Shown here one piece after another: positions 1-21,407 of a DNA stretch of 21,407 bases. Below the pieces are notes generated by a model. That model searched no databases. It saw nothing but the letters and a program-made list of their open reading frames with translations, and was not told the DNA's origin. Numbering within the stretch: the first letter of the stretch is position 1; the number at the start of each line of letters is the position of its first letter. The translations under genes and the position numbers were made by a program. Source of the stretch: Takakia lepidozioides (taxonomy: Eukaryota > Plantae > Bryophyta); NCBI GenBank assembly GCA_030704615.1, contig JAKLZA010000369.1, positions 1 to 21,407 of the forward strand, in the 5' to 3' direction.

Positions 1-330
1 GACACAGGGAGGCAGTTCGAGTCTCAACGTGTGAGACACGATGACCGTTCGCCTTTGGCAGAGTGGGTCAACAGGTGGGGTCAACCACGAGCAGCATACC
101 ACACTGCCTCAGTTCCAGGATTCCCATGCTTTTCGGGATGGTGGACCTGGCCTCCTGTGGGATGCTCAGGTGCAGCAGTTAGTGGAGCCTAATGCCGACG
201 AGCGAGAGCGGGCTATGGGGTTTTCCACTGGGACCACGGCGGGTGCCTTCTCTTTCTGAGGCATCACGTCGTCAGGTGTTGGGGCAAGCAATGGATCTCA
301 AATTGCTTGACCTGGATTGTCAGCTTGGCT
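1..330 (+). pseudogene. C-terminal part of a C5-cytosine DNA methyltransferase domain in the Gypsy polyprotein (frameshifted)
   Basis: Joining frames gives EPNADERERAMGFSTGTTAG..LSEASRRQVLGQAMDL.CLTWI. This matches DNMT motifs IX (E.ER..GF) and X (R.Q.LG.[AS]) in order and spacing. Confidence 0.7.
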
Positions 331-739
331 ATGGCTGACAACGTAGAGTGCGGAGTGCACTTCCTTGACGGTCTCTCTGCCTACCGAGACGGTACAGGAG
401 CGGAGTGGGGGGAGCCGGTGAGGACCACGAGGTGTGTGTAGACATCCATGGCACATGTGGGAGGTGCTCGAGGTTCAGAGGGAGTTGGCAGCGAAGGCAG
501 CTGTGATACGTGATGATGAGGTGGGGATTCTTCTCGGGATGAGGAGGTCCTCAATGATGAGATGATGGGGCAGGATGAGGCCTGTCATTGACTGAGCAGG
601 AAGGGGGTACTGCTCAAGAGGTTGCAGCATAGCAACCACGGGACGCGTCCTCTACCTCTAAGCCCACTGGACTTAAGTTGCAGTTACGGGGACAATTGGG
701 AGCCTGATATTGGACCCATTGTCACCGGAGGAGAGAGAG

Positions 740-2130
740 AGACGACGTATATACGGCGGTTCCTGAGGGCTTATAGGAAATTGCTTTGCCTTCAGTTTGA
801 AGGACTTGGGAGCACTGAAGGGTCAGAGATCCGTATTGAGTTGGCCACTGACATGCCAATCTTTCGGAGACCCTATAGATACAGTGACATGGAGAGGTCT
901 TTGATTCAGATGAGGACTCAAGATCTCTGGGAGCAGGTTTGTGGAGCTCTCTGTGGAGAGTATGCTTCAGCCACAGTGATGCCAGCTAAGAAGGATGTCT
1001 ATGGCATTGGACGGAGAGACAGAGAGTATGTGCGGTGATTACCGGCCTGTAAATCGTCAGACCAAGTCCGATAGGTATGCCATGCCAACACCAGAGGAGA
1101 GAGAGATCTTTGATGCCATTGGGCATTCAAGGTCTTTAGCACGTTGGATTACGATCCGGATATCACCAGTTGCCGAATCAAGGAGGCGGATAAGCAAAAG
1201 ACGGCATTCTGGGGGATCAATGAGCACGGGAAGGATTGCCTATACCAGTGGCGGTTCTTACCATTTGGGCTTTAAAAACGCTCCCGCTAAGTTTCAAAGA
1301 GTCATGGACAGGATTCTAGCAGGGGTGGAGTTTGCTCGGTGCTACATAGATGACATCCATCTTTAGTGCTACGGTGGGAGGAGCCATGATGAGAGACACC
1401 TTCAGGGGGTATTTGAGCGCTTGAGGACGCAAGGATTGAAATTACATCGGGCAAGTGCAAGTTTTCCACAACCAGATTGAGTATCTGGGTCACATGATAT
1501 AATCCTGGAGGATTGGGGGTACAACAGACTAAGGTAGAGTCCATTGCACAGGTTCCACGCCCCATGGATGTGAGCCGAGTTCGAGCTTTATGGGGTTAGC
1601 AAACTATTACAGACGGTTTGGTAAGGGATTTAGTGCCATTGCAAAGGCTCTAACCCAAGCTGACCAAGGTGGACCAGGAGTGGCAGTGGGAAGATGAGCA
1701 AGAACAAGCTTTTCAAGAGCTCAAGGCGAGGTTGACCTCGGCGCCCATCTTGAGACGACCTATCAGGGGCGTTCTTTTCAGCTGCATACAGATGGAGCAT
1801 GCTGGGGCTTGGAGCGGTGCTCACACAGGTGGATGATGAGGGAAGAGAGTTCGTAGTGGCTTATGCTAGCAGCTCGAACAATGCTGCAGAGTCTAAGTAT
1901 AGCTCATATGAGGGAGAATGCTAGCTGCAGTGTGGGCCGTGGCACACTTCAGGTGCTATCTATACGGCAATCTCTTCACCCTTGTCACGGATCACCAACC
2001 ACTCAAGTGGTTGATGGAGTCAGACAAGCTTACGGGGAAGCTTGCACGGTGGGCACTCATCCTTCAAGAGTATGACTTTCAGGTGGTGCATCGACCGGGT
2101 TTGGTCAATCGAAATGCAGATGGGTGAGTC
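740..2130 (+). pseudogene. pol: Gypsy reverse transcriptase + RNase H (frameshifted)
   Basis: Fragments IRIELATDMPIFRRPYRYS, MCGDYRPVNRQTKSDRYAMPTPEE, GFKNAPAKFQRVMDRIL, CYIDDI, AAVWAVAHFRCYLYGNLFTLVTDHQPLKWL, KLARWALILQEYDFQVVHRPG. Confidence 0.93.
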
Positions 2131-2310
2131 GCAATCCATGCACGAGCCAGCAGGATGACACTGGAGCTCGGTTGCATGGTGAGAAGACGAGGAGATGGTG
2201 CCCGGATGGCATGCATCTGCATTTCTGTGTATCTTGGCAGCGGAGGGCCAGGTTGGACCTACAACAGGGATGACTGTTAGATCAAGTGTCTGAGGACCCT
2301 GAGGCCAGCA

Positions 2311-3827
2311 ATGAGCAGGGTGGCGCCAAAGATTACCAAAGATATACATGAGGATTCAGTTGTGTTGGACTACCTCCGCAGTGGAGACACGACAGCCACT
2401 ATGACTGCCAAGGAGAGGGATCGGATCCTACAACGAGCCAAGAGGTTCAGGTGGGAGGGGACACACCTGCTTCGAGTGTGGGAGGATTGGTCGAGTGAGG
2501 ATTGTGCCTCACCCAACACAGCGGGGCACGGTTAGTGCGGCATGCCATGAGGAGTTGGGGCATTTTGGGGTGCGACGCACTCATAGTCTACTGCAGGGGC
2601 AGTATTGGTGGCGTGGTATGCACACAGAGGTGCAACAATTTGTGGCTAGGTGCATGGTGTGTGACAGGGTGCGTGCTTCATTCAACGCCCCTACTCCACC
2701 ACAATTGCACCCTCTTCCGATCATGGGATTGGGCTACAGGTGGAGTCTTGACTTCGCAGGGCCGTTGCCACTGACCATGCGCCACAACAAGTACGTGTGG
2801 TGATGGTGGAGGGAGCACTTCTCCAAGGGGATTGAATTGGTTCCATTGCCTGATAAGGCTAGTGAGGGAGCTGCGTATGCATTCCTGGATGTGTGCTAGC
2901 GATTGTGTGCTTAGCTGAGGATTCGCACGGACGAGGCTGAGGACTCAGGAGAGAGAGGGAGAGAGTTCTTGGGGGAGTTTCAGGCTTTGTGTGACAAGGC
3001 CTTGATAGACCACCGCACCACTTCCCGGGATCATCCTGAAGCCGATGGCTTGGCAGAGAGAGAGTTGTTCAGACAAGTTAAAGAGGGGTTTGCGCAAGTA
3101 AAGTATGGCTTGCAGAAGGGACACCTAGGGGATTGGGACCTTCAATTACCTGGTTAGCCATGGGCTACAGGTCAGCAGCAAGCAAGCATCACTTGCCTCC
3201 TTCTCACCATACTTCTCTTCTCTTTGCTGAGAGCCGGATTTGCCTACATCCATTCGCAGAGAGAAGCTGCTACAGTTCTTAACCTTGACGATCCGGGACG
3301 TGTGGGCATGTGCATGTGAGCAGCGTGCAGAGTTGTTCAAGAGAGTCATGCCCATGGCTTTCGAGAACCTTGCCATTGCACAACACCGTGATACGTTGAG
3401 TATGCTACCATACGTGGTGGGGGGGCTATCGTCCTGGGGTTCGGAGTCAACCCTGGGTGACTATGTCTATCTGCAGCACAGACTGCTCCTACGACCCTGG
3501 ATGTGACTGCAGGACGTGTTATTTTGAGGGTTCGAGAGGTCTTGCCCTCAGGCGTCTTGGTCTTGGAGGGTCGGGATGGCATAACTTGGAAGGACCATGT
3601 GCGTAATTGTGCGCCATGTCACCTTCCGAATGTCGATGGCAGGATTGACCCAAACCTGGCAGTGGTATATCTGCAGTTTGAGGTGCATGTTGTGTGGGTC
3701 TGCTAAAGGGGCAGCCACCATGCTGGTGTGCGATCAATGCTCTAGAGGTTGGCATATGGGATGCTTGACTCCACCTCTTGAGATGGTTCCGGATGGGGAT
3801 TGGTTATGTCCACATTGCATTGGATAG
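2311..3827 (+). pseudogene. Gypsy integrase with C-terminal PHD finger (frameshifted)
   Basis: Zinc finger CHEELGHFG...CMVC, core WSLDFAGP and DHPEADGLAER, terminal C4HC3 PHD CMLC...CDQCSRGWHMGCLTPPL..VPDGDWLCPHC, stop at 3827. Confidence 0.92.
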
Positions 3828-4076
3828 TGGGAGTGGATACAACCATGGAAGGCTAACAAGAAACGCAAGGCCCAGCTACTAGGAGACCTTGAACACACGA
3901 GGTCCTGGCTCAAGTTCACAGATTGCAAGATGGCGACTAACGATGGGGCTACTCTTGTACCCGGCCTCTTGGTCTATAGAGTTTGAGTACAATAGGGACA
4001 GTGATAGAGGACTTAGTACGGCTGTGGCTATTACATCTTGTAGCTATCTGGAGGTAGAGGGACCTATCCACCAGCT

Positions 4077-4086
4077 AGGGGGGCGA
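4077..4086 (+). other. Polypurine tract
   Basis: AGGGGGGCGA one base before the TGT that starts the LTR. Confidence 0.7.
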
Positions 4087-4087
4087 T

Positions 4088-4626
4088 TGTGGCAGACTAC
4101 TTTATTGTGCATATATGTGTGGTGTGGTTTGGACAGCGATGTAGTTGTGTAGCGATATGTATGCGCACGACAGCTGTCAAGTTAAATAAGCACAGTGTGA
4201 AAACAGCTAGAATAAAACTAGTTATTTGTAGTTAAACACTTGGATTAGGTCAAGTGTTAAATCAGGTGTCAAGTTTAGTTTGACACCTGGTCCGTCTTAT
4301 CTTCACGAGAGCGGCAGTCGCGCGGCGCTCATCTTTCTCGAGTTGAGCCTGCCGCGACCGAGCTCTTGTGTGCGTTTAGATCTGAGTTTACTCATGATGG
4401 GAGTGTAGGTTGTGTGGGGTGGAGTCCCCATAGCTTGGGGTGCCCCTGGCTCGACTACTGTTTTAAAGAGTGATGGTTTTGGATTTCACATTGTTTCTTG
4501 TGTGGAGAGCAGTGTCATTTGTTAGCTTTCTTATCATTGTGGCAGACTACTTTATTGTGCATATATGTGTGGTGTGGTTTGGACAGCGATTGATGTAGTT
4601 GTGTAGCGATATGTATGCGCATGACA
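4088..4626 (+). repeat. 3' LTR (~540 bp) with its first ~85 bp duplicated at its end
   Basis: Starts TGT after the PPT and ends ACA where the methyltransferase exon resumes on the minus strand. 4088-4172 and 4538-4626 are near-identical. Confidence 0.75.
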
Positions 4627-5798
4627 ATGCACGTCCACTTCTTTTCAGAATCGGGACGGCGCTCTTGCGGGTCCACTTCGCAATTCTGTCTGAGTGTTTT
4701 TTCCTCTGCTCGCCAGGACAAACCACACAGCCTCTGTCGTCCAACACCATGCGGGCAAGCCCGAATCATTTCTTCCAAAAGTCCTCCGAGTACCTGTTCC
4801 AAGATGGCAAAGCTTGCAGTCCTTCCACAGGCTCTCCGTCCGGAATATCCAAGATGATCATATCGCAAGACCACTCGGTGGCATTTCCGCCCCTCCTACA
4901 ATCCTTGTCTGCACACACCCTCTCAAATAATGAGACCATATTCTGAATCCTGGGGGTGTCGGAAGGCTTTTTCGGCAGTCGCCTTCTTCAGTGCTCTGCC
5001 CTTCAGACCCTCCATGGTCTTCATGTATGCCAACTTCGCTGCCCGTCATCCCAAAGCCGCCAAGAAACTCTCATTTACACACTGGACTACTGTTTCGGGA
5101 GCCACTTTCGGCCTCTTCATTTCCACCGGCTCGAAAGGGTGCCCCCCTGGGGGGTTGAAGAGTGCCTTCTTTGCCGAGCCAGTTCTCGTGCCTCTCGTGA
5201 CAACGGTGGGACAGTGGGCACAGGGGAGGCAGCCTGCGTTTGGGGGGGTGGGCTGGTTGCAAAGTCTCCATCGGAGTCCTCTTCCTCACCCTCTTCCTGA
5301 ACAGGCTATTTCTGCTTCTTCGTTTTGGGGGTGTCACAACAGCTGCTCCTTGCTGGCGAGTCCTCTTCTTTGACCCTTCTGTTGGGCCTGCACAAGCTGC
5401 ATCCACCGTCTTTTGTGCCATCTCAGTTGCCTTTCTGGATTCTTCCAGAGCAGCAGATTCCTTTGCCGACTTTGGCCCCAGCAGGGACACGTCTTTCCTT
5501 TCTCTTCTCTTCTGCCAAGGCATGCAGATCTTTCTCAGACTCGTCAACAATACCGCCAGACATATCCAGGTACCAGGGGCATCCAAACGAGATGCGCGGG
5601 ATGCCATTGGTTCTGCATCTCGGGTTGTGTAGACACAGCTTGGGGCCCGCCACGGTCCAAGCCATGAAGAACGGGGGCTCTTGAGCCAGGCCCCTGTCTG
5701 AAGGCAGCACGTATTTCATATACCTGCAAGGCAGTCAGCATGGCGTGAGCATAAGATTGGACGAACCTACTGGCAGAGTGCCACCGAAAACAAAATGC

Positions 5799-5816
5799 AA
5801 ATGCGGTGCCGCATTT
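5799..5816. promoter_or_regulatory. Intronic palindrome AAATGCGG-TG-CCGCATTT (host-copy variant of the element palindrome)
   Basis: 8-bp perfect arms, in intron 5724-5868. Regulatory role is inferred. Confidence 0.5.
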
Positions 5817-7011
5817 CCGAGACAAACCTCGTAACCAGGCTTCGCATACAAGGGCAGCTGTGCTTCACCTGTAAACAATTCGCATTTGCAGCTTCCCCGC
5901 TCCCTCCTGATGTGTAACTCCACGCTCCTTCTTGCTGTCTGTAGCTCTCTGGCGAAAAAGGTTTGTCCTTGTACGCACATCTGAAACGCGTCACGTAGTC
6001 TTCCAATGTCTGTGTTCCATCCCATTTGACGTACAAGCCGAACGAATTTGTGTGCATTACGACTTGCTCCTTCGCATTCGACATTACCTACGATTCCCAA
6101 ATGCATTGTCACGTAGCAGTTCAGAGGAATTCATTTCAGAAAAGCAAATCTGGGGAAGTACCTTGAATTACCTGGAACCACCAGTCATGCGGTTGAGCCA
6201 CACATCCACTGCAGGGTCGGAAACTTCGAGTGGAAAAGACCACATTGTCCTTATGCTCTCGGATGCATTCCAGATCGACAGCCACCGTGTCTGCCATTTC
6301 CGATCCAATGTCAGGAGCTGGAAGAGAGTGGCTATTGCTAGGAAGGAACTTCAGTGCATTGAAACCTCACCTTCTCTTTCGCCTCAACACATGCCGTTGA
6401 GAGGTAGGTGATGCAGTTTCTCCAATTGCATGGTCGGCTGCATGGCCCAAGAATAGTGTTTTGCAATCTCGGGATGAAGTCCTTTCCAAGTGCCGGATCT
6501 GCAATTGCCACCAGCTTCACAAGCTTTGACTTGTATTTGGTTCTGGACTTGACACCGGCTTCCTTCAAGTGCTCAGTCAATGACTGCAACGTTTTGACCT
6601 GCCCCTCACTTTCCATGAAGAAGCGTTTGGCATGGGCCAAATCCGGCTTGATGTGTTGGACTGCCAACAAAAACATGCAGAAGCGTTACATTCGATTCAT
6701 GTGGAAAGATTACTGGAAATTGGGGAAGGATGAGCAGAGGGAAATCGGAGGACGACTTACTTTGTATATCACCTCCACCATTCCATCCATAGTGAGACGA
6801 TACCATGTCCGGTCTGTTTTTGCCAACGGCTTTCTGAATGAGCTCGGGCTCCAGCATTTCCGCAAAACATCTGCGGATCAGTGAGACCAGTTTCCTCACC
6901 CTGTACAGCATATGTGTCATGTGGGTATGCACGTACGCATTCTCAGTGACCCTGCAAGGCACACTCTCCAGTTCAGTACACGGAAGCACGGAAACAAACC
7001 AGAATGGAAAC

Positions 7012-7033
7012 CGAAATGCGGCACCGCATTTCG
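7012..7033. promoter_or_regulatory. Intronic palindrome CGAAATGCGG-CA-CCGCATTTCG (host-copy variant)
   Basis: 10-bp perfect arms, in intron 6952-7063. Regulatory role is inferred. Confidence 0.5.
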
Positions 7034-7992
7034 AACGTGCTAGGGAGGGTATGAGTATCTTACGAGTTGAGGTCCGCCATGGCATTCTTGAGCAGGGAAG
7101 AGTCTGCCGCCTTCACCTTCAGGATGACACACTCCACCATGTAATGCCAGCCAATGTGCTTGGCATGGTTCTGCTTGATGTACTCCTACCAAGCAAGAAG
7201 TCGGTGATTCCCGTCCCACACAAAGAACATTTTACCCGACATATGGCCGAAGTCTGGATCACCCTTCAGCGTCGCCTCAAATTCGGTTGGTTGCGAGGTG
7301 CCAGTGGGTATCCCACGTTGACAATTCATCGGCAGTGGGTCCACGAGTTTCGCCGTCCTCATTCTCAATGGAAACGTAAAACGCTGCCGATCCCAGACGG
7401 TACCCTTCTCGAAATGCGAACTTGAGCTTATCCACATCTCCGGGAAGGGCCTGCCTGACGATGGAAGAGACCACGACGAGTGGGAGAGAGGGAGACCATG
7501 CGACAGAGTGGATTCAAAGAGTCCGCTGGAATACCCTGCTGCCAGAACTCTGCCAATGCTACTGTGTGTCTCCTCCAACATTTTATCCTGCTGCACTTTT
7601 GAAATCCTCCGGAGACATGTCTGTAGGTGCTGGCTGGCAGTGGCTGAGCAGCTGGAGCATCCTCAACTGGAGCTGCACTCTGGGGCCTGTCTGCGGGCAA
7701 TTCTGCCATTGCAGAGGCCTCCTCCGGGCCTGCTTGCTCATCGGTGGTGAGGTCTTACTGCGAACGTTGAGCGGCAGCACCCTCCTCCGGTACCAAATCG
7801 ACAGAAACGGTCGATCCCATTGCCTTCGCTGCGCAGCAGAGTCGGCCCCACCATCTACAGGCGGAAATCCTCCAGGAACTGAGCTTCAGCTCGTGGAAGC
7901 GGTTTTGCGAGAGATTATTCGGCCGTCGCCCCTGATTGCCTTCTGCTTCCTCATCCTTGCAGGTGAAGGGTGTCGCTTGCAATTGAATCTGT

Positions 7993-8001
7993 CTTTTACC
8001 C
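7993..8001 (+). repeat. Left target-site duplication CTTTTACCC
   Basis: Identical to 20979-20987 and directly abuts the left TIR. Confidence 0.9.
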
Positions 8002-8049
8002 GAGGTTTGCTATTTCATGAGCATGAGCGGCATGAGCGGCATGAGCAGA
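8002..8049 (+). repeat. Left terminal inverted repeat
   Basis: GAGGTTTGCTATTTCATGAGCATGAGCGGCATGAGCGGCATGAGCAGA; the right end reads GGGGCTGCTATTTCATGAGCGGCATGAGCATGAGCGG on the minus strand. Confidence 0.88.
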
Positions 8050-8244
8050 GTAGTAACACAATCGGTTTTCATGAGCAGAAGTACAAATTTCGAAAATAAA
8101 AAACAATTAAAAAACAATAATTTAATGCAATGTGTCAGGAAAAACAAATATATTATTCGCCCCTTGAAGGGAAAATTGCAGTTTTGACAGTTGTGCTCAT
8201 GATATTTCGTCTTCCGCTCATGCCAATTCCCAGCGACATGTGCA

Positions 8245-8684
8245 AATATGGCGCCGAATTTCGCGGTAATAGGGTCCGTAACCTGAAAAAACGGCGACGT
8301 ATTTCGTACGGTAATAGGTAATAGGTCTCTGGCGAAAAATGGTGCCGGAATTCCGCGGCTATAGGTCCCCTCATGACAGGTAATTCGGCGCCATTTTTCC
8401 AGTGCATGTTCGGACTTAGCCAGTTTTCGGCGCAAAATAGGGAAATTCGGCGCCATTTTTCCAGACACTGTACCAGTGCATGTTGGGACTTAGCCAGTTT
8501 CGGCCCAAAAAAGAGAAATTCGGCGCCATTTTCCAGACACGGTACCAGTGCATGTGGGACTTAGCCAGTTTTCGGCCCCAAAAAGAGAAATTCGGCGCCA
8601 TTTTCCCAGACACAGGTACCAGTGCATGTTGGGACTTAGCCAGTTTTCGGCCCCAAAAAGAGAAATTCGGCGCCATTTTTCCAG
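8245..8684. repeat. Palindrome array A (~73-bp tandem unit plus degenerate copies)
   Basis: GGCGCC cores at 8387, 8449, 8522, 8594 and 8669, further copies at 8250, 8293 and 8341 (the latter two degenerate). The unit also contains GGGACTTAGCCA. Confidence 0.95.
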
Positions 8685-8840
8685 AAATGGCCCCACAACT
8701 GCTTCTGTTGGATCTCAGTTTGAATGGAATATTGCCTCATTCCAGGAGTTTTGGGGTGCATTTCATTACACTGCAAAAAAAAAGTCTGATACAGCAAAAT
8801 GCATTTGAAAATATCCATATGGAGGATTCCCTTTGCCCCA

Positions 8841-11800
8841 TCAATGATTTCTGGAATCCCTAAGGAGGAGTTTGTGCAGCTCGTTCACGCTCAACGCCGG
8901 TGCATGAATAAAGTCATCAATAGTCACGTTCATCCTCAACCTCTTCAGGTAGATGTAATACAGAAGATGCTTGCACGGATAATACTTCGAACCCTTCTTT
9001 GCTTCCATCAACGAGAAGTCCGTACAATTGCAAGTCGGCTCCACTCCAATCGTAATTGTGTATACATCGTCGCGTACAGCCGAGCCGGCCGTTGCCATCC
9101 GATACACACGCCCAAGGCCGGGTGGGGGTACGTCCACGGAGCTCTTGAATAGTGCAAGCCATCCCAAGAGCATTGGCAATCCGAGTCTCATTCAACTTGT
9201 TGGGAGGGGTGTTGTCTCTTCACTCTTCCGAATCGCATTGTGGGATGTGCAGAATTGTCCAATCCGTCTCTACTGGACGGCCGAGCAAGTCTGCAATGGC
9301 TGGGTCTGAGGAACCGGAAATGCGTGGGCCGGGATGTCTGTGCGTTGCACCATTCGAAATCCTGCTGCAGATAGAGCATCCGCCTCATTCTGAGAGAGGC
9401 TGCAACCCGGTGCAACAGGCTAGACGCCCGGAGGCTCCGACATTCCCTGAATCCCGTACTTGGGCTTGCCAAATACACAGGTCATTATGTCGTGCCTACA
9501 GAACCAAAATGTCTGCGTTGTGGCGTGAGCAAATGTGGGAGTCCAAAAATCTGCCGCTGAAACAAGGTGCAGGTACAGCACCGTGTGGGTTCCTCCGAAT
9601 CATCTCACCACAACGTGCTCTCGTATCCACCCGGATGGCGCAGCACTTCCTCGAAATGCCGGCAATGTCCTCGCAATTCTCCACTGTGACTCCGACACTC
9701 TTGTCTCCACAATGGGAATGTTGTACTGCTTTACTACAGATGGCTCGTTATGTTGTCGGGGCACGCGCCCTGTGCTCAAAGGAGATGGCGATCTTGAACG
9801 TGCAGGACTTGCGGTGCTCGACGAGACCTCCTCGGGCAACATCACCGGACCACGAGGGAGCGTGCAAATATTTTTGTCAGCTCGCCATGAATCCTCTTCT
9901 CCGCCAGGTGCCTCGTCAAGTCTTCGTCTCACTGGACGGGTATGAACATCTCCTTCCAAATGTTGGCCTCTTCGCAGCAATGGCGTGTCCCGAAGGCCCT
10001 CTCGCAAGGTCGCCGCCCACTTTCGAGGATTCTTTGATCTGGAGGCCGTCCGCATCAGCATTTCCTGCCTGTCCGGCCCCAAGCCCCACTGTTTCCCTTT
10101 CAAGAACTCGTTTGTACCTGCATTGCTGCATAATTGACCTCACAACGACGTGTCACCGAGGCGGCCCGTTGAGGAGCGATGCATGTTTCCGAAAACGAGG
10201 CCGCCAAGAGCGAAAGGAGGGAGGAATCCGAGGAGCCGGAGTCGGGAGCTGTCTCTAATCCCTTTTCCACAAGGTAACCGGGTAGAGAGAATCTTTGGTG
10301 GTTGCGGATTACGGTTTTAGAATAGAAATTAGCCAAAGAAGCATCTCCGATTGTGTGTCCTCTCCTTTCATCTCACAAATAGCAATTGTCATTAGCATCC
10401 TGCAGTGGGTGTCGTAGACATGTGCACCCATTGTCACCCACTGGTGATTTGTAATTCGCTTGATATGGTCGAACATGACCCAACTGTTTGACAAGTTCCC
10501 ACTCGTCATCCTGTCGACCACCAGTTCGACGCCGCTGCCAGGTCCACACGTGGACATTTTGAATACGAAACAACGATCTGCCTCAGTCCCTTGTCCTGGA
10601 AACCTACTTCCATGAATGTAGTCATATCGACATCGTCGCTTCACCTCCAGAATGGAGTGCATATCCGAGCCACGCCCAATTTTCTGTTTGCATGAGACAA
10701 TGTGGTTTCGGACATTCGGTGAACATACATGGGACACCGACTCCAGCAATGCCTCCATTTCCTTCTCGTCGAGAGGAACTCTATCGGAGCCGTCTTCCGA
10801 CATAATTCTGGCCAATGCCATCTTATGGGCGGCTTGGAGCTGTATCTGTTTGGGTTTGGCACCCGGTCTCAACTTAACCTCCTCCTGAACGAGCTCCTCT
10901 GCTTCGTGGGCAGCCTCCTGCGAGTTCCCCCTCGCCAATTTTGTGACAATGGGAACCAACGTGTATGCAAGCTCGGGTGAGGTCAGGGAAAACGTGCAAC
11001 ACATAGAACTGCTTGGCATTACAAACAGACATGCAGTGTGGTGGTTCTTTGCAATGCGCACACTTAAATGTGGAGTTCGGAACCTTCTCCTGAGCTCGAA
11101 ATGGTTGGTGAGCTGTGCCTGTCCAATCGGTCTCGTTCCTGTGACCTCTGGATTTAAAGTGGAAGCAAGTTGGGGAGAAACACCGCAACGCGCCCGCACA
11201 ACAACGTAGCGCACCCGCACACCATCGAGCATCTTCATGCTGGTGGTTTTGGTAACGCACCAAGGATGACCGTCATGTTTTATATCCATATCTGTCAACA
11301 TTCCGGACGCCCTCAAGTAGTCCGCCCGAGGAGGGAACTCAAAGAAGATATTACCGTCGACGTCGGCGGGAAGACATGTAACCGATTTAGTTGCGAACTT
11401 GCTGTAGTCCAGCCCGGCCAGCTCCGACCGGTGTCCTTCCAGGTGAAGCCCTCGCAGAATTTCAAGAATAGATCGAACTGCGGTGCTCGTGCTGGGAATA
11501 TGACTCCCTCCTCCACTGACGTCCATTGAGGACTTGCCTGATCTCCAGGACGACCTCAGAACTTCCATGACCTCGTCTGAGTCGGACAGGTTGTGAACAA
11601 CCCGGTTCTCGCTCGTCTTCATGGATGGGTTCGGCTCTGGATTTACTTCGTTGCGGACTTCTCTCTTTGAGGTAGCCATTCTCTCTGATTCGCGGATTGT
11701 TTCGTGGAAGGCGCCAGGATAGAAGGTGCATTTGGCGGGCAAATGAAGTCCCCAACAGCCCTGTATATGACGCTGTCCGATGGTGGAACTCGCCATTCCC

Positions 11801-12017
11801 TGCCATCGCCGAAATCATCGTGGAGCACAACAATACTCTCGACAACAAGGCCGTTAGAGTCCTTCCTTTCCTCCTCCAAAAAAACCGACCCCGGTTTCAG
11901 GTGGTATCGAACGCACAGATATTTCTCCATCACCCGGCAGGTGTCCCCTCTGCACGGAAATGAAGCTCTATGCTCGTGAGGAGGGCAGTACACTGTAGCG
12001 CTCGGGTTTTCCGCCAT
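8841..12017 (-). pseudogene. MULE-like transposase: GCM/WRKY-like Cys-His domain, N-part of DDE domain, C-terminal SWIM finger; frameshifted, catalytic core apparently deleted
   Basis: KHDGHPWC...CAGALRC...CAHC...RACIHVGSHCH (~10940-11290), WVMFDHIKR...TMGAHVYD...TIAICEMKGED (~10340-10490), SWIM PTCNCTDF...YPCKHLLYY (~8960-9035). Start codon uncertain (12017 or ~11680). Confidence 0.75.
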
Positions 12018-12298
12018 GGGAGATGTGCACACAAGACTGCCAGGATGGCGTGCGGGGAAGCTCCCTGGTAGAAGGGGGTGCAATGATGGGAATGAATGCG
12101 ATGCCGATTTGTCCGAGCGACGAAGCCTGATCCAAATCCAGGGAGCCAACTATCTCAAAAATCCACAGTCAGAGTGTTAATGAACCTTGTCTCCGGAATG
12201 CGGCCCCTGGTCTTTGCGCAATAACTGCCAACGGTATGCAGTCAGAAAGTGGGGGGCCGTCCGGATGATGACGGCTGAAGGGGAGAAGCCGGCACCGT

Positions 12299-13990
12299 GC
12301 CGTCACATTACTACCCCCGAATGGAAATTCGGCACCCAATATCCAACAGAGGAAGCCCGGATGAAGTCGCCTCGGGCGCAGAGGCCGGCGCGTGTGCGAC
12401 AGAGAACATCCCCTGGATGGAGATTCGGCGCCGAATTTCCATCCGGGCCCCCCAAAGGGAGTCGTGTCGGGGGGTCAGGCCGAAAACTGGACGGCATAAA
12501 AACATCCCCAGATGGAAAAACGGCGCCGAATTTCCATCCGGGGCGGTTCGGATGCAGTCGGGGAGGGGGGGTGGCCGGCACTTGGCCGTCACATTTCAAC
12601 CCCCGGACGGAAATTCGGCACCGAATATCGAACAGGGGACGCCCGGATGAAGTCGCCTCGGGCGTAGAGGTCGGCACGTGTTCGACAGAGAGTATCCCCT
12701 GCATGGAGATTCGGCGCCAAATTTCCATCCGGGTCCCCCCAAAGGAAGTCTTGTCGGGGGGTCAGACCGAAAACTGGCCGACATAAAAACCTCCCCAGAT
12801 GGGAAAACGGCGCCGATTTTCAATCCGGGGCCGTTCCAAGCAGTTGGGGGGGGGAGGGGGGAGAGGTCGGCACCTGGCCGTCATATTTCAACCCCCGGAC
12901 GGAAATTCGGCACCGAATATCCAACAAAGCGGCGGAGAGGCGGCACCTCTCCGACAGAGACCATCCCCCGGATGGAAATTCGGCGCCGAATTTCCATCCT
13001 ACAGGTAAGTGGAATCCCGGATGGATGGAAATTCGGCGCCGAATTTCCATCCAGCAGGTAAGTGGAATCCCGGAGGATGGATGGAAATTCGGCGCCGAAT
13101 TTCCATCCAGCAGGTAAGTGGAATCCCGGATGGATGGAAATTCGGCGCCGAATTTCCATCCAGCAGGTAAGTCGGATCGCTGGCGTATGGATATTTGGCG
13201 CCGAATTTCCATCGCCAGGTATTTCATCGCTCAGAATTACCTTCCTGCAGGTAATCCTATCGATGCGGTAGGAAGGTAATTCCTCATCAGAATTACCTGC
13301 ACGAAGGTAATTCTCATCTGGGAATTACATGCAGGAAGGTAATTCTGAGCGATGAAATACATGGCGAATGGAAATTCGGCGCCGAATATCCATACGCCAG
13401 CGATCCGACTTACCTGCTAGATGGAAATTCGGCACCGAATTTCCATTTATCCGGGATTCGAATTACCTGCAGGATGGTAATTCGGCGCCGAATTTCGATC
13501 CATCCGGGATTCCACTTACCTGCTGGATGGAAATTCGGCGCTGAATTTCCATTCATCCGGTATTCGAATTACATGCCGGATGGAAATTCGGCGCCGGATT
13601 TCCATCGAGCGCTTCCGAATTACCTGCGTGAGGGAAATTTGGCGCGCCGCCCGACCTGCGCGGATGGAAATTCGGCGCCGGATTTCCATCCGCGCGCTTC
13701 CGAATTACCTGCGTGAGGGAAATTGGCGCGCCGCCCGACCTGCGCGGATGGAAATTCGGTGCCGGATTTCCATCCGAGCGCTTCCGAATTACCTGCGTGA
13801 GGGAAATTTGGCGCGCCGCCCGACCTGCGCGGATGGAAATTCGGCGCCGGATTTCCATCCGCGCGCTTCGGAATTACCTGCGTGAGGGAAATTTCCAGCG
13901 CCGCCTACCTTGCTGGATGGAAATTCGGCGCTGAATTTCATCCTGCTGCGCTCCGAATTACCTGCAGGATGGAAATCGGCGCCGGAATTC
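12299..13990. repeat. Composite palindrome array B between the divergent genes (~290-bp, 53-bp and 84-bp sub-arrays)
   Basis: About 22 copies of the core, up to the 30-bp perfect palindrome GGATGGAAATTCGGCGCCGAATTTCCATCC, in three different spacer contexts. Confidence 0.95.
12968..13606. repeat. Long inverted repeat, ~285-bp arms, 68-bp spacer
   Basis: 13160-13255 is the near-exact reverse complement of 13324-13420. Cores pair symmetrically (13197/13378, 13144/13431, 13091/13484, 13035/13537, 12982/13590). Confidence 0.9.
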
Positions 13991-14942
13991 TATCGCAGCG
14001 CTCCGAATTACCTCTACGTTGGAAATTCCGGGACTGTTTACGTCGATTTTCATCCGACATGGAGGGCTTCATCCGACATTTATTGCGCAGTTGGGCAATA
14101 AATGTCGACCGCTGTCGGTTATTATTCGGGCTGGCGACGCATGGCTTCCTGGACACGTACCCTAAATCTCATGCTATCTTGCTTAACATGCTATTCGAGG
14201 CATGTACCCCAAAAAAGGAGATCTTTTTGGCTGGGACTTATGCCGCCTGAAGGGCGTGGCTCTCCTGAGAGAGACCTCACATCCAGACCGTGGCGGAAGT
14301 TGAAAGCTCTGTACTACGGACGACGGCCAATCTCTCGCATGGCCAAACTGAAGCTCCAGCAGGAGATTCCAGTGTCTTGCTCACAACCTGCGCCAACTGA
14401 GCCGAGTACTCTTAGGCAAGCCACTTCTGCTTTCGGTTTGTTCGATTTATTTTTGCTTTCGCTTTGTTACCTCGCTTTGTTTTGCATCTTCATCGTGGCT
14501 TCGCTGTATGAGTGAACTTTAGATAGTTGAGTGAACCTTAGATTGTTTGCAATGCGTGTGCAAATCCGGCAGCTCTGGAGAAGGCTGCTTGTGCATGTCA
14601 TTCTCAGGTAATGGTTTGCATTTGTTTTCATTGTTGTTGCATGGCTCTCCATACTTCCTAAACTTGTTATGTTTTCATTTTTGCTACACGATTGTTGCTA
14701 TGGTGGTTGCCTGCTCGTTGCGATGCTGCTTTTTGCACCGATGTTGGTTTTCACGATTTTTGTCAATGACAGAGTGACGACGAGCCCGGCACGCTGGTGG
14801 TATCATCGACAGCTCCAACTCATCGCATGTTTGAATTGCCCAACTTGGGTGAGAGGGCAAACTTAAACTTTTTGTTGGTGGACGGGAGGACTTGCAACGA
14901 GAGTACGACAGAGTAGGCATTGGGGAGGTTGGTGCAGGCGGC

Positions 14943-17900
14943 ATGGCAGGTGAAGGGCGTGAGGACATGAGGACAGCAGATCCGGCAATGGAGGTTGTTC
15001 ATGCACATGCAGTAGGGCCCGCCCACGCAAAGAAAAAGAAGAAAGCTAAGCACATGCAATCCCCGGCGAGAGAGCAGTCACGGGCTGCGGAGGGGGGAGT
15101 GAGCAGTGCGCGCAGGGTGTCAGTTCGCCTCAATCAAAGGTGGTCGTCCTGGAGGGCTCCCCTGCTGCTAGCCCTAGTAAGAAACAGAAGCCCGTGAGAG
15201 GGCAAAAGAGAGGGCAAAAGAGCAACGAGACAGAATGCTAGCCAGGAGGAAAGAGAAAAGGCAGCTGAAGAGGCCAGGGGTGCCCAAATGACAGATGCCA
15301 ATGTAAGCGAGGGACGCACAGAGACGGTGGATCCCTCCAAGACACCACAGAGAGGCAGTAACACACCGGTTAGACCATCGCGGGCAAGAGCAGCCCCCGC
15401 AATTACCCATACGGTGGAGAGTGGAGGAGAGAAAAGAACACCTGAAAGAGCACGGATTGTGCAAGTTCGAGGTGAAGCCAGGGAGAGGGCAGTAGAGAGA
15501 CGGGGGAGAGTGCTGGAGGTGGTTTCGCAGGTGGCTGACCCTGTTGAGGAGGACGACAGGGAGCTTTCTGACCAGGATGACATCCTCCTGGACATCCCCA
15601 GGCCCCAAACCCGGAGCATACAGGCTGGATTTGGCGGTCCTGGTGGGCTGCCGGAAAACCCCTCTGTAGCAGACGTCATGTCTGAGGCGGATATGAAGTT
15701 GGCCGCTGCCAAGATGTTGGAGGCAACCCACAGCAACATTGGCAGGGTGTTGGGGGGCATGGTGTACCCGGCCAAGCTTCGAATTCCCCTTTGCCGCTTG
15801 GTGTCATTGCAGGTGGTGAGACCTGCCCTCCCAGGCGATATCGACAAGCTGAAATTCTCTTTCCGGGATGGATATCGAATGGGGTCTGCCGCGTTTACGT
15901 TTCCATTGAGAACGACCACGGAGCTTCCCGTGCCCACACTTCCGATGAGGTGGACAAATGGGGTCCCCATTGGCAAACGCGAAATGAGGAGTTCGAGAGA
16001 TCGATTGCTAGTGATCCTCTTTTCCAGCACTTGTCCGGTAAGATGTTCTACGTGTGGGACGGCAATCATCGCCTCCTGGCATGGATGGAGCACATTGCCC
16101 AAGCCCACCCCAACGACCTCGATTGGCATTTCGCCGTGGATTGTGTTGTGCTGAAGGTTGCGGGGCCCAAAGATCGCAGTCTTCTCAAAGCTGCAATGGC
16201 GGACATCAACTCGTAAGTTACAACGCCTCTCGCTTTTGGACTTTGAATTTGGAAGTCATTTCATTGCGAATCCTCATATATGATGAAAATTCCCATTTCA
16301 GTATTGTTTGATGGAAATGTGGCACTGCAGGTGACTGAGAATGCCTTCATTGCCACCAACTTGTCCCATATGCTCTTCCGAGTGAAGGATGTCGGGAAGC
16401 AGGGGGTGCAAGAGTTTGCCAATTCCCTCAGTGCCGACCTCCTGCGCAAGTCGGAGGCAAAGGCAGACAGAACCTGGTATAGGCTGAGCGTGGTGGACTA
16501 CATATTTCGGGTAAAGCTCCTGACAGTTTTGTTGAGCTAATCTGTCTCTCCTCCCCCAATAGAAGAAATTGTGTTGAGCAGGATCTCTAATCTTATGTGC
16601 GCATTCTTGACAGACGAAAATACAGCAGGATTTGGCACATGCGCGGAGGTTCTACATGGAGTCAGAGGAGAAGAATCCAACCCTCCCGGAACTTGAATCA
16701 TATGTCAAAGCTGCGGAGGTGAGGGCCCGCATAAAGTACAAGTCGTGGATGGTAAAGTACGTGGCCATAGCTGATCCCGCCCTTGGTGCCGACTTTCTGG
16801 TGGAGGTGGGGAAGCACTACTCTCGCGCTCTGAAGCCCACAATGACATTGGAGAAGCTCCATCGTCTAGCCACATCCTGTGTGGATGCAACAGAAAAGGT
16901 GATACATTCTTAACAAAATTGTGGTGGCAACAACTCTTTTTTGTGGTGTTTGGCGCTTACGAATATGCTGGGTGGTTGGACAGACCCGGTGGCTCCAAAT
17001 CTGGAATGGTTCCCAAAGTACCAGGGACATGTGGAGCTTCCCCAAACCGGACAAACTCTCTGACCCCACATTCGACATGTGGATGAACCGCATGACATGG
17101 TGGTTTCAGGTACTTCCCCACGCTTCGTTTGGGGCTTCTACTCTAGTAGGGGGTGGATTCATTGTATTTTTTGAGGAAAGCGATCTGATGGACAATCTCC
17201 ACAGGTGACGACGAATGCGCAAGAGCAGCTGGACACACAAGCACATCAGTTCAAGATGGAGATATCTCCTGCAGCAGAGAGCCTACGTGACTATGTGACG
17301 AGGTACTTTCTGCTCTACAAAACCAACCTATTTTTTCGGGAGATAGCAGATGCTCGCCGGAACCACGAGTTCACCGACCAGCCGAACGCGGACAAAGCAG
17401 CAATGCGCCTTCTGTATAGGTACATACGCGCTGCCTTTCTTTCAAGTCCTGGCATTTCAGGATGTTAGAGGCCTCAAGTGGTGTTAGGGAAAATGGCGCC
17501 GAATTTCCAGTCAGGGCTCCGAAAATGGCTAAGTCCCTAGACTGGCTGGCCCGGAACTGGAAATTCGGCGCCATTTTCCAATTCCAGGCCCTATTGCCGT
17601 CCAGGGACTTAGCCATTTTCGGTCTAAGTCCCTAGGGTGGCTGGCCCGAAACTGGAAATTCGGCGCCGTTTTCCAGTTCTAGGCCCTATTGCCGTCCATG
17701 GACTTAGCCATTTTCGGGCTAAGTCCCTAGGGTGGCTGGCCCGGAACAGGAAATTCGGCGCCGTTTTCCAGTTCTAGGCCCTATTGCCGTCCAGGGAATT
17801 AGCCATTTTCGGGCTAAGTCCCTAGACTGGCTGGCCCTGAAGTGGAAATTCGGCGCCATTTTCCAGTTCCAGGCCCTATTGCCGTTCAGGGACTTAGCCA

Positions 17901-20758
17901 TTTTCGGGCTAAGTCCCTAGACTGGCTGGCCCTGAAGTGGAAATTCGGCGCCATTTTCCAGTTGTAGGCCCTATTGCCGTTCAGGGACTTAGCCATTTTC
18001 GGGCTAAGTCCCTAGGGTGGCTGGCCCGGAACTGGAAATTCGGCGCCGTTTTCCAGTTCTAGGCCCTATTGCCGTTCAGGGACTTAGCCATTTTCGGGCT
18101 AAGTCCCTAGGGTGGCTGGCCCGGAACTGGAAATTCGGCGCCGTTTTCCAGTTCTAGGCCCTATTGCCGTCCAGGGACTTAGCCATTTTTGGGCTAAGTC
18201 CCTAGACTGGCTGGCCCTGAACTGGAAATTCGGCGCCGTTTTCCAGTTCCAGGCCCTATTGCCGTTCAGGGACTTAGCCATTTTCGGGCTAAGTCCCTAG
18301 ACTGGCTGGCCCTAAAGTGGAAATTCGGCGCCATTTTCCAGTTGTAGGCCTTATTGCCGTTCAGGGACTTAGCCATTTTCGGACCTCATTGTGTTTTTCA
18401 TGAATGCAGGTACTGTAAGTTCTCCCTTTTGGAGAAAGGTCATCTGTCTTCGGAGCCACCATTCTTCCTGGCATGGAGGAACCCTGGGGCTGACTCCATG
18501 TACACTGACGATATTGTGAAGGAGTGGCATCTGGAACATTTGCGTGATTGCCCTTGGTATGTGGACCTTCCGCCCGGCTCGCTCGACCCATCCGAGTTTC
18601 AATTGAAGCTGGATGCTGAATTCCGACGAAACCGGGCTCCGCTGCCTCCGTTGGGTGCAAAAGAGGCAAAAGCGCTTGCGAACTCCAGGAAAGCGACAGA
18701 GCTTGCTCAGGCAGGAATTCAGGAGAAATTGCATGAGAAGAGTAAAGGTCAAAGGAAAATGACAAGGAAACAGGTGACTGCAGTAACACCCAAAAAGAAG
18801 AAAACCATCGGGGCATCGGAGGAGGCGCAGGAGGGGACCCAAGAGAGTGACTCGGACGACGACTTCGTTCAAGGTCCTTCGACTGCTGTTGCTCCTACCC
18901 AGTCACCGGTCGTCCGGGTTCCCAAGTCAGTTCGGAGTGGGACTGGCTCTGCCAAGAAGTTGGCATTTGAGGGCGAGCCTACACGCCGGTATTCGGCGGT
19001 GACGTTTACGCACAGGCCAAAGCTAGAACCTCCAACCATCATCCAATGCGTCAATGAGAGCTTCCTTGACGCTCTCGCTGCCAGGGCGAAGAAGGTGGCA
19101 CACAACAAGTCTCTGGCGGAGCAGAAGGGGAAAGCCAAGAAGAGGGCTGGCGGTACAGAGCCTAAAGACACCCCTGGTTTTGAAGCCATGATGGAATTCT
19201 TCACGGCTGTGAGCACGAATTGCAAGAGCACTCGGGGGGGGTTGAGGTGGAGAGAGCTTGCGACATGATTCTCCTCGACATTCCAGATGGGGAGCTGCTG
19301 GAGGGCCTGGATGGTGTGCCCACCTGGAACAGGTTTACTGAGCACTACTAGAAAGCCGGGTTTGGGCTGGTGGGGATGCTTCTGGATGACGGTGGATGTG
19401 TGGTTGTCATTGCCACGAGAGGGAAGACCACAGAGAATGCGGTGGCAAGGTGGACACCGAAAAGTGTCACCCCGGTCCTCCTCAGAAAATGGTTCTGCAT
19501 CAGTACGCAGGGGTTGCGAACAGAGGGCCAAAGTGTAAGTTATCAATCTTTGCATTCACTTCATATTGTGGTGTATGTTAAGTAGACCCTGGAGTTGATC
19601 CCTTCTTTGTTGGATGTGCAGACATTGGTGTTTGAGGCATATTGCTTTGTGAAGAGAGGGTCTACGCTCAAATTCCGCAACGACGGTCGTCTTGTTGATG
19701 CCGCTGTGGACCCTGTAACCTACGATGTCCTCTACAACTATGTGCCCCACTCCAGTATGCCGAATGACACAAAGACAGGCAAACCGTGGCGGTACAGCCG
19801 GACCCGGAGCCCTGCTTTCATCCAAACCCTCATGGAGACGTGCTCGGATGTCCAAGGGCGGATTCTGGACCTCACATGCGGCACGGGTAAGCCTTCACGT
19901 GCTCAGTTTGTCCCCTGGCCCGACTGCAATTGCATGCCGCAAGCTATTAACCGCCCGCTTTGTTCCTCAGGTGCTTCAATGTGGGCAGGGACGTTGTCCG
20001 ACAGGCATGTGTTCGCCTTCGAGCCAGATACTGCCCTCCACAACTCGGAACTTGCAGCGGCTGAACGTCTGCCGAAAGAGGAAGAGGCATCCTCGGAGGA
20101 TGAGGAAAAATCCGAGAAGGAGCAGGGGGAGGAAGTTGGGATCGAGGCCGAGGAGCCCCCGGTTTACGAGTGAGTGGTGGCATTGTAAGTTGCCTCCAGA
20201 TTTTGTGAGGCACCTCCCTCCGCTCTCTTATTTCATTGAAAACCCTTTCTGGTTGTGCTGGTATTGACATTCTTGAAGTGGATTTGTTCTTACTGTAGGA
20301 TGCCAAGTACTGCCGGAGGGACGTCTACACCGGAGTTCATGGGCAGGAGGAACGTGCCTTTTTTTGCCAGGGGGGATTTCATGCCTAGTCCAGAAAGGGA
20401 GTACATCCTTCCTACTTATGCTGCCCGGCTTGCTTTGGTGTCCATTAGGAGGTGTTCCGAACGTAGTCGTGTACAGCAGATTTTAGACGAGGCAAGCCTC
20501 AAGAAAATGAAGATGAGGGAGGAGGCAGCAGCTATTAGAGCCCGTCGGGCTCGTAGATTTGTGTTGGATTCTGCTGAGGAAAGTGGGGGAGAAGACGCAG
20601 AAGATTCCCAGGAGGTGAGGTGGACAGTCCCCCAAGGAGAGGACGGGATTTTTGAGAGGCATAGTGGAACTGATGCATCACAGAGCTCGGAGGATGAGGG
20701 GGATGAGGGGGATGAGGAAGAAGGTGGGGCAAGTTCCTCGGAGGGTGTAGGAGAGTAG
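14943..20758 (+). CDS. Multi-exon cargo gene: low-complexity N-terminus, ParB/Srx-like domain, helical region, beta-class amino (N4C/N6A) methyltransferase fold, acidic tail
   Basis: IPLCRLVSLQVVRPAL...KMFYVWDGNHRLLAW (DGNHR at 16058-16072); motif IV-like DMILLDIPDG (19262-19291) before motif I-like ILDLTCGTG/ASMWAG...RHVFAFEPD (19862 onward). Introns at 16213-16330, 16511-16613, 16899-16983, 17110-17204, 17420-18409, 19535-19621, 19887-19970 and 20170-20298. A few 1-bp frameshifts and a TAG at 19349-19351. True start uncertain. Confidence 0.8.
17488..18382. repeat. Palindrome array C: nine 95-bp units inside an intron of the cargo gene
   Basis: Cores start at 17558, 17653, 17748, 17843, 17938, 18033, 18128, 18223 and 18318, plus one inverted core at ~17488. 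Confidence 0.97.
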
Positions 20759-20919
20759 TGCCCATTCCGGCTATGACAGTTAGAACATACTTGTATAGAC
20801 GTGGCTTGCCACAAAATTTGCAATAAAATGTTGCATTTCAAGTCCACTGGTGCCACATTCCAACTTCACATGACCCTATTTCCGTGCCTCCTAACCCTAT
20901 TTCCGTGGACTCACAATGG

Positions 20920-20978
20920 TCTGCTCATGCTTTTTTTTTTTCCGCTCATGCTCATGCCGCTCATGAAATAGCAGCCCC
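20920..20978 (-). repeat. Right terminal inverted repeat
   Basis: Reverse complement of the left terminus, with the same CATGAGC(GG) micro-repeats. Confidence 0.88.
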
Positions 20979-20987
20979 CTTTTACCC
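20979..20987 (+). repeat. Right target-site duplication CTTTTACCC
   Basis: Identical to 7993-8001. Confidence 0.9.
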
Positions 20988-21306
20988 TGCTGCTTCATTC
21001 GCGTTGGTGGGGGTGAAGCGGCCTGAGCCGGTTCAGAAACCAGTAGAGGGACGGGCTGCTTCTTCTTCGACTTTGCTGGAGAAGGGCCCGACCCCTGCTG
21101 GCGATTCTCCATGACCGAAGAACGCGAGTCGATCTCTGGGGCTTTGAACTTGCCCTTCGAAGCCGCGTCTTTGAAACGCACAGGGCTAGGCCCGGCAGGA
21201 ATACCCAGGCTCGGGGATCGGGTGGGTGTACGTGCTGCAGCTAGCTCCTCGGACTCTTCCTGCGGCTCTTCGGATTCCTGCGATCCCTCCAGCACGTCCA
21301 CCTTTC
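20979..21306 (-). pseudogene. Upstream exon portion of the host ParB-methyltransferase gene
   Basis: Acceptor ...cctaacag at 21307. The open frame ...PPPTRMKQQGKR joins in frame to QIQLQATPFTCKDEE (7992 downward) when the insertion is removed. Confidence 0.75.
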
Positions 21307-21407
21307 CTGTTAGGTATGCAAACATGTTCTGCATTCAAGTCTCCTAGCATTCAGTCTAAGAATTACAGAAGCAAAATGGGGGGTTCGGTGCTCGATCAGC
21401 TGCGCGC

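Follow-up and report, generated by a model that had tools for sequence, protein, structure and literature searches.

Two introns of a broken transposon gene in the bryophyte Takakia lepidozioides each hold a symmetric 18 bp palindrome that differs by one mirrored base from the sites of a closely related transposon inserted in that same gene. Both are found on contig JAKLZA010000369.1, the 21,407 nt stretch analysed here and referred to as the window, in which a Mutator-like DNA transposon (the inserted element) has integrated into the accessory, or cargo, gene of a paralogous family (the host gene). Each of the two cargo genes encodes a ParB-like domain, helical middle exons and a methyltransferase-like domain. 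The host palindromes are probably, at odds that we put at roughly 70%, this family's version of a site common to a whole clan of transposons, at which a dimer of the ParB-like cargo protein encoded by that family would likely dock.

A family variant of the palindrome in the host introns

The proposal of the earlier note, made from the window alone, that introns of the host gene bear a symmetric palindrome of their own holds at both sites, which match exactly at 5799-5816 and 7014-7031 where 0.01 matches per shuffle are expected with up to two mismatches allowed. The second had been placed at 7012-7033; the site is real, the 18 bp motif occupying 7014-7031 and the wider interval being its perfect 22 bp extension. 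Both introns have GT-AG boundaries on the minus strand, and the five host introns seen make up about 453 of 3374 host bases. One of them (5724-5827) shares its codon context with the intron of the inserted gene that contains array C (17420-18409), as had also been suggested. The four half-sites of the host, in two sites 1.2 kb apart, are identical. At position 5 of the half-site, all four have G, a base found in none of the 74 half-sites in the inserted arrays (T in 52, A in 18, C in four and G in zero, the array copies being non-independent), so that the base change described as mirrored in both arms is borne out. At 16315-16332, the 3' splice site of inserted intron 1, the counterpart of the host intron bearing the second site, is overlapped by a degenerate half-site of host type, AAATGTGG-CA-CTGCAGGT, which may be a vestige or a chance match.

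Public DNA contigs of the same organism were aligned to positions 4000-9000, runs X1 and X3 representing one sample. In run X1, 33,390 contigs aligned; the identity of 4,345 was 90-95%, which points to a host family present in multiple copies. Of the 30 joint rows of this run, 12 are listed, and seven of these connect one host-type site to another in tandem, with periods of 33, 33, 33, 53, 53, 53 and 65 bp and differing spacers; these joints come from short contigs of one run with sides of about 20 bases, which stop short of joining the arrays to the host gene. Further copies of the variant, on which the earlier note had staked its interpretation, are hence present in the same organism. The interval 5715-5840 is covered by 186, 27, 4 and 0 contigs from four runs, with substitutions at seven positions and six indel rows, all within 5742-5791, and with zero variants in the palindrome at 5799-5816, including its TG centre, across the 186, 27 and 4 family contigs. 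The host-type site is the usual state of the host family, and the sequences support the variant as a family-specific trait. That the host sites are merely chance matches, or decayed copies of the inserted motif particular to this one copy, might be argued from there being just two in the window; this is a negligible prospect given the expectation of 0.01, the four identical half-sites, the lack of any alternative letter in family contigs and the tandem copies elsewhere in the organism.

A fixed core with variable flanks

The inserted element contains 37 AAATTCGG-type sites in three arrays (A-C; Table 1), and 35 of their 74 half-sites deviate from the inserted consensus. A second repeated motif, GGGACTTAGCC, is found in arrays C and A (17500-18390 and 8400-8680), with an inverted pair of its own in array C, and in one contig it is joined with a host-type site (joint 5818 to 8630). 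Array B also includes a long inverted duplication (13075-13606), in which a 32 bp sub-array is flanked by arms of up to 138 bp with 93% complementarity.

A profile search with the ParB-like domain returned 755 clusters, the named homologues coming from the liverwort Riccia sorocarpa. The related loci considered here are the best 80 of 169 confirmed metagenome loci plus one further locus, L085, making 81. The pattern CGG-NN-CCG, with at least four of five flank pairs symmetric, occurs at 43 sites in 23 of these loci, compared with 0-1 in each of 20 dinucleotide shuffles, and CGG ranks first among the 64 possible cores. Flanks present in at least two copies among the relatives are CCTCT, GGCCT, GGTCT, GCATT, TGTCT, GGTGC, ATTGG and ACTTT, to which the window adds AAATG and AAATT to give ten variants; AGTCT, GGTTT and TATGT are each found at a single site. 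The centre takes at least ten forms (AT, AA, TA, AG, TT, GA, TC, CA, TG and CG), which identifies these two bases as a spacer. The CG centre that had been ascribed to the inserted-type motif consequently has to be dropped: the central bases are free and lie outside the motif, making AAATGCGGCGCCGCATTT unsuitable as a search pattern.

The flank variants fall along the clades of the ParB tree, and the sites whose positions were mapped are either upstream of the cargo gene or in the gaps between exon matches. The orthologous intron 5 carries a family-specific site in the host gene, the inserted gene, L078 and L079, while L033 and L011 use asymmetric sites. Three copies of GGTTTCAC-NN-GTGAAAC occur in a clade devoid of CGG-core sites (L056, 9125-9360; L060, 5271-5500), and their half-site resembles that of bacterial parS, but with a two-base spacer. 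L047 belongs to the TGTCT clade yet carries GGTTT (58-75), as a single intact copy in a repeated unit, making this locus a candidate for a recent motif switch with a closely related protein. L085 (G001:C58) consists of a plant-type cargo gene, with intron-like exon gaps and a site array, in a cyanobacterial genome record; all three site matches in that record fall on its one contig, which is likely plant contamination of the assembly. Viral contigs yielded three isolated single matches to the host pattern, and L084, a viral-contig protein match of 20 residues, was dropped from all counts.

The spacing of the sites follows the turn of the helix. Gap sizes of 25-280 bp recurring at least twice per locus, irregular single gaps being left out, gave 17 periods from 12 of 20 sources (51, 51, 53, 64, 73, 74, 75, 84, 95, 105.5, 107, 127, 127, 127, 138, 150 and 213.5 bp). 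These lie near integer multiples of a repeat of about 10.6 bp (R 0.84 at that value; p about 5e-5; p 2e-4 for the 10 distinct values), some periods being common to kin, and 51 and 150 fitting poorly. The host-type periods, outside this test, agree with it at 3.1, 5.0 and 6.1 turns. Phasing, the fixed core and tolerated asymmetry together favour, over a hairpin, a protein bound to double-stranded DNA. An explanation in which the palindromes act as hairpins of RNA or single-stranded DNA, through splicing, small RNA or cruciforms, and in which the mirrored change simply preserves pairing, could draw on the intronic position of both host sites and their capacity to fold (-5.6 and -9.6 kcal/mol as predicted for DNA, values computed without a shuffle control). 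It leaves unexplained, however, the invariant CGG core, the whole-turn periods, the arrays positioned between divergent genes and the poorly pairing asymmetric sites of arrays A and C and of L011, and is very improbable.

The cargo protein

On sequence comparison the host gene is a paralogue of the inserted cargo gene. The two ParB-like domains are 58% identical over 137 columns, tblastx segments give 29-81% identity, and the domains are mutual nearest rows in a tree of 83 sequences from which L084 was left out (Shimodaira-Hasegawa-like approximate likelihood ratio test value 93, not starred, by a quick method).

The ParB assignment draws on a structural model of P0167, a liverwort relative (predicted local distance difference test score, pLDDT, of 84), the closest VIA-align matches of which were KorB (Z 7.5, root-mean-square deviation 2.7, 95 residues aligned) and pNOB8 ParB (Z 6.9), with PadC, Srx, free serine kinase and Spo0J completing the six best. 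The top 10 Foldseek matches were all Noc, ParB or Srx (E 0.13-0.35), and the domain's neighbours in the Atlas were ParB_N (11% of members) and DUF6551. The model supports, with moderate strength, a ParB N-terminal (CTPase/Srx) fold in this relative. Box II of the ParB family, G-x-x-R, reads DGNHR in both the host and inserted genes, is nearly invariant in 40 relatives, and has the canonical form GERR. We infer that the protein has a DNA-binding domain; a helix of exon 3, likened by eye to the ParB recognition helix, was discarded as unsupported, searches of DNA-binding folds being blank or weak.

At the C-terminal end of the inserted gene, motif IV precedes motif I, the order characteristic of beta-class methyltransferases, with DIPD near 19275 and DLTCGTG near 19870; the host gene has DIPD near 4860. 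A related protein, P0187, which is 33% identical to the host gene (E 7e-8), matches PF01555 at E 1e-5 with 25.9 bits, just below the cut-off of 26.7. No ParA ATPase was matched in any of the 17 scanned open reading frames (ORFs) of the window, and the complete inserted element consists of a transposase and the cargo gene only; with the partner ParA not found there, the element is not classed as a ParABS partition system. According to a recent preprint, fusions of the ParB fold to N6/N4 methyltransferases are common in phages, and folds of this kind bind CTP, ATP or GTP (bioRxiv 10.1101/2025.10.10.680097).

Flank turnover and the tolerant-binding alternative

The earlier note also read the divergence of the motif as tracking that of the protein, in other words as co-evolution. 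Motifs were assigned by hand to the 27 rows compared, correcting for C-to-T decay and coding the asymmetric site of L033 as GGTCT; the near-twins L034, L065, L066, L074 and L075, and the decayed or late-found L009, L038, L059 and L079/80/82, were left out. Identical flanks are shared by five of eight pairs at 80% ParB identity or above, 19 of 30 at 65-80%, four of 16 at 50-65% and five of 297 below 50%, and a Mantel test over all 27 rows gives rho 0.22 (p 0.017). The motif thus appears to be inherited with the family, turning over on a scale of 35-50% protein divergence. The family-specific part of the claim stands, with 24 of 38 pairs sharing flanks at 65% identity or above against five of 297 below 50%; the clade-level part does not (p 0.73). 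As judged from these comparisons, co-inheritance of motif and protein is established, and strict or reciprocal co-evolution goes beyond the evidence. The pattern fits co-evolution and is equally expected from shared descent alone; against reciprocity, motifs are common to kin through descent, the comparisons yielded no residue that sets specificity, and template-switch repair could mirror a change without involvement of the protein.

Several observations count against docking by a family-specific protein. The motif-protein correlation is absent among 14 clade representatives below 65% identity (Mantel rho -0.09, p 0.73), and GGTCT is present in two unrelated clades. In L063, L071, L024 and L037 the orthologous intron 5 is without a site, the strict core test found zero sites in 58 of the 81 loci (many of them short), and the long loci L055, L056/L058/L060, L040, L076 and L081 have no CGG-core site. 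The invariance of 5799-5816 in the contigs is non-significant alone, as seven variable positions would spare 18 of 104 bases with a chance of about 0.26, and it gives no demonstration of selection. On the protein side, the ParB fold scores are weak (Z <8, E >0.1) and come from the liverwort relative rather than from the broken proteins of the window, the cargo exons of which had no Pfam match; a profile search of solved structures returned no ParB. The model of the middle domain (pLDDT 90) aligns over residues 6-215 with KorB 150-252 at background level only (Z 4.2, root-mean-square deviation 4.4, rank 42), Foldseek found nothing related to it, and hhalign against 21 bacterial ParB/KorB sequences was blank. 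Lastly, motif IV is DIPD in the host and inserted genes, DVPE in L085 and D/N-x-P-x-G in eight relatives, none of which conforms to the canonical (D/N/S)PP(Y/F/W); this makes methylation doubtful, and the methyltransferase-like domain may instead bind or shield DNA without methylating it.

The absence of correlation across clades favours an alternative in which motif and protein are co-inherited with no change in specificity: a tolerant binder would read the core, while the flanks drift, are mirrored by template-switch repair and spread through array homogenisation, so that the variants record ancestry. The many inserted half-sites off consensus and the asymmetric sites of L033 and L011 also suit this explanation, as does quasi-palindrome correction, a mutational route described in the literature. 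It accounts less readily for the complete lack of G at position 5 of the inserted half-sites when T, A and C all occur; for the retention of ACTTT across clades at 58% ParB identity or below, set beside the three differences that separate GGCCT from CCTCT at 63%; and for dispersed single intron sites that keep the family variant outside arrays. Such a history is possible, if short of probable, and as it still requires a binder it is compatible, and overlaps, with most of the docking interpretation.

Structure of the window

Table 1. Principal features of the window, with positions counted from its first base
Feature	Position	Strand	Description
Host-type site 1, AAATGCGG-TG-CCGCATTT	5799-5816		Host intron 5 (5724-5827)
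Host-type site 2, AAATGCGG-CA-CCGCATTT	7014-7031		Host intron 1 (6952-7063); 22 bp perfect arms at 7012-7033
Array A, AAATTCGG-type sites	8244-8680		Period 72-75 bp; half-sites asymmetric
Array B	12325-13990		Between divergent genes; periods 95-96, 53 and 84 bp
Array C	17489-18338		Inserted intron 5 (17420-18409), orthologous to host intron 5724-5827; period 95 bp
Host cargo gene, main part	4628-8001	-	ParB-like exon about 7490-7064, helical middle exons, methyltransferase-like start
Host cargo gene, 5' part	20979-21407	-	N-terminal coding region of low complexity, separated from the main part by the insertion; reading frame maintained through the target duplication
Target-site duplication, CTTTTACCC	7993-8001 (left), 20979-20987 (right)	+ (left)	9 bp; only two occurrences in the window
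Inserted Mutator-like DNA transposon	8002-20978		12,977 bp; short imperfect terminal inverted repeats (G...GCTATTTCATGAGC)
Broken transposase gene, inserted element	8841-12150	-	C-terminal SWIM finger (PF04434, E 5e-4)
Inserted cargo gene	14744-20170, 5' limit approximate	+	ParB-like exon 15771-16213, helical middle exons, beta-class methyltransferase-like end
Gypsy-type long terminal repeat (LTR) retrotransposon	1-4627	+	Truncates the host gene; outside the palindrome system; identity read from sequence; LTR duplication detected

The inserted element has a 9 bp target duplication, terminal inverted repeats and a SWIM finger, traits typical of the Mutator-like superfamily. The MULE DDE domain PF10551 had no Pfam match in the window fragments or in three transposase homologues, in which D...CxxH...E-like motifs can be discerned by eye, and the Atlas gave no usable match for the transposase. 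The element's insertion point lies in the N-terminal coding region of the host gene, which is broken by frameshifts and a stop and has had its 3' end cut off near 4628 by the Gypsy LTR; the inserted cargo gene is likewise disrupted, by frameshifts or stops.

Binding to subterminal repeats is known of the transposases of several superfamilies of DNA transposons, and array A falls in the leftmost 700 bp of the inserted element, both of which would be in keeping with the palindromes being subterminal or internal binding sites of the transposase rather than of the cargo protein. Most sites, by contrast, are upstream of or inside the cargo gene, far from the ends, and the terminal repeats bear a different motif. 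Among the relatives, transposase matches are confined to L055, L056/L058/L060 and L065, and Pfam searches of 85 of 144 ORFs from long loci identified no transposase family. In red algae, comparable arrays are reported beside the ParB gene (see below), which again speaks against the transposase, an unlikely binder overall. Both this and the hairpin explanation fit worse than docking of the cargo protein, whether family-specific or tolerant.

Further features of the window concern its history and gene content. The nested arrangement at 7993-8002, an element of a sister family inside its own relative's cargo gene, is a single case (n=1) and might be due to chance or to cargo genes lying in open chromatin. 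A 172-codon open frame (20240-20758) with no Pfam match, close to where the inserted element ends on the right, is a candidate for a further exon or a small third gene. The pol region of the Gypsy element apparently ends, as judged by eye, in a PHD-like Cys/His finger (3700-3830).

Relation to known systems

Accessory genes of this kind have precedents in algae. PAG3, found in Plavaka, Zisupton and Mutator elements of red algae and described in a Bostrychia preprint (bioRxiv 10.1101/2025.02.11.637652), encodes an N-terminal ParB-like domain, lies adjacent to tandem arrays of inverted repeats and is proposed to take part in self-binding and self-modification; here, likewise, a ParB-like gene is situated inside a DNA transposon beside inverted-repeat arrays. 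The two differ in that PAG3 is fused to a 2-oxoglutarate (2OG) oxygenase, the methylase being the separate gene PAG2, whereas the land plant gene joins ParB to a methyltransferase-like domain; site sequence, family variants and phasing do not feature in the available text of the preprint. An accessory gene of Sola1-1_Ec32 in the brown alga Ectocarpus is a fusion of a ParB-like domain to an N4C/N6A methyltransferase, transcribed in the opposite direction to the transposase, with a proposed role in binding and modifying the element that carries it (PMC12477816). It resembles, by description, the present gene in this fusion and in its orientation relative to the transposase, and differs in its Sola backbone and brown algal host; the term 'palindrom' is absent from the main text.

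In Arabidopsis, VANC of the VANDAL transposons has been shown experimentally to bind and to cause hypomethylation, protein and target having diverged via non-coding tandem repeats (PMC5735166). Like the cargo protein, VANC is an accessory protein of a plant transposon, and its short motifs differ by family and lie in non-coding tandem repeats, introns included; protein and target both diverge between families, and family-specific motifs in such repeats are what the present system displays. VANC differs in consisting of DUF1985/DUF287 and in having 8-9-base non-palindromic motifs in one orientation, as opposed to an unrelated protein with an 18 bp palindrome and predicted binding; neither domain had a Pfam match in the 17 window ORFs or in seven relatives. 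By analogy, the cargo system would work like VANC without being a member of it. Bacterial ParB and Noc paralogues exhibit switched site specificity (PMC7383237), and ParB-parS, Noc-NBS and KorB share with the present case a ParB fold with a G-x-x-R box, a palindromic site and paralogues of altered specificity. The differences are that no ParA is seen here, that the gene is eukaryotic and contains introns, that it has an extra methyltransferase-like domain and that any helix-turn-helix in its product is putative.

Algal ParB accessory genes with inverted-repeat arrays, ParB-methyltransferase fusions and the precedent of VANC co-evolution are accordingly already known. The literature search found no land-plant description, catalogue of fixed-core variants or phasing, most subscription papers lying outside its range; supplementary Fig. 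13 of the Bostrychia preprint may show arrays.

Proposed mechanism and significance

The site plan shared across this large clan of plant transposons would comprise a variable 5 bp flank, CGG, any two bases, CCG and the mirrored flank. A dimer of the cargo protein could read the invariant core through conserved residues and the outer flank through variable ones, load cooperatively at arrays on one face of the helix, and then spread over the element as a nucleotide-gated clamp. The effect of this clamp might be to mark the family's own copies or to shield them from silencing by the host, in the manner of VANC, a purpose which, by that analogy, we consider evenly poised between right and wrong. 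Arrays would be homogenised through tandem duplication, single sites being seeded into introns, and the host and inserted pair, one mirrored base apart, would represent an early step of divergence. Strict discrimination between AAATG and AAATT, such that a single base renders the pairs non-cross-reacting, is a tentative suggestion from the sequences, a little short of even odds. The most far-reaching version is doubtful, namely that a ParB clamp of bacterial type was converted by land-plant DNA transposons into a code for self-recognition. In this version each protein would load only on its own CGG-NN-CCG variant, within helically phased arrays, and slide along the element with its methyltransferase-like domain to mark or shield it, and the nested pair would represent a one-base switch in specificity.

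The locus and its relatives provide the algal proposal of self-binding with a site logic, consisting of a fixed core, a free two-base centre, mirrored family flanks and whole-turn spacing. They also supply a minimal pair, in the form of sister proteins 58% identical in the ParB domain with sites one mirrored base apart, that makes the proposal directly testable. If the specificity is real, plants would have, next to VANC and independent of it, another self-recognition system of this kind, and its ParB/site pairs, native to plants, could be put to use in locus labelling or targeted epigenetic marking; if the self-recognition code holds, the clan would offer a natural panel of at least 10 non-cross-reacting protein/site pairs.

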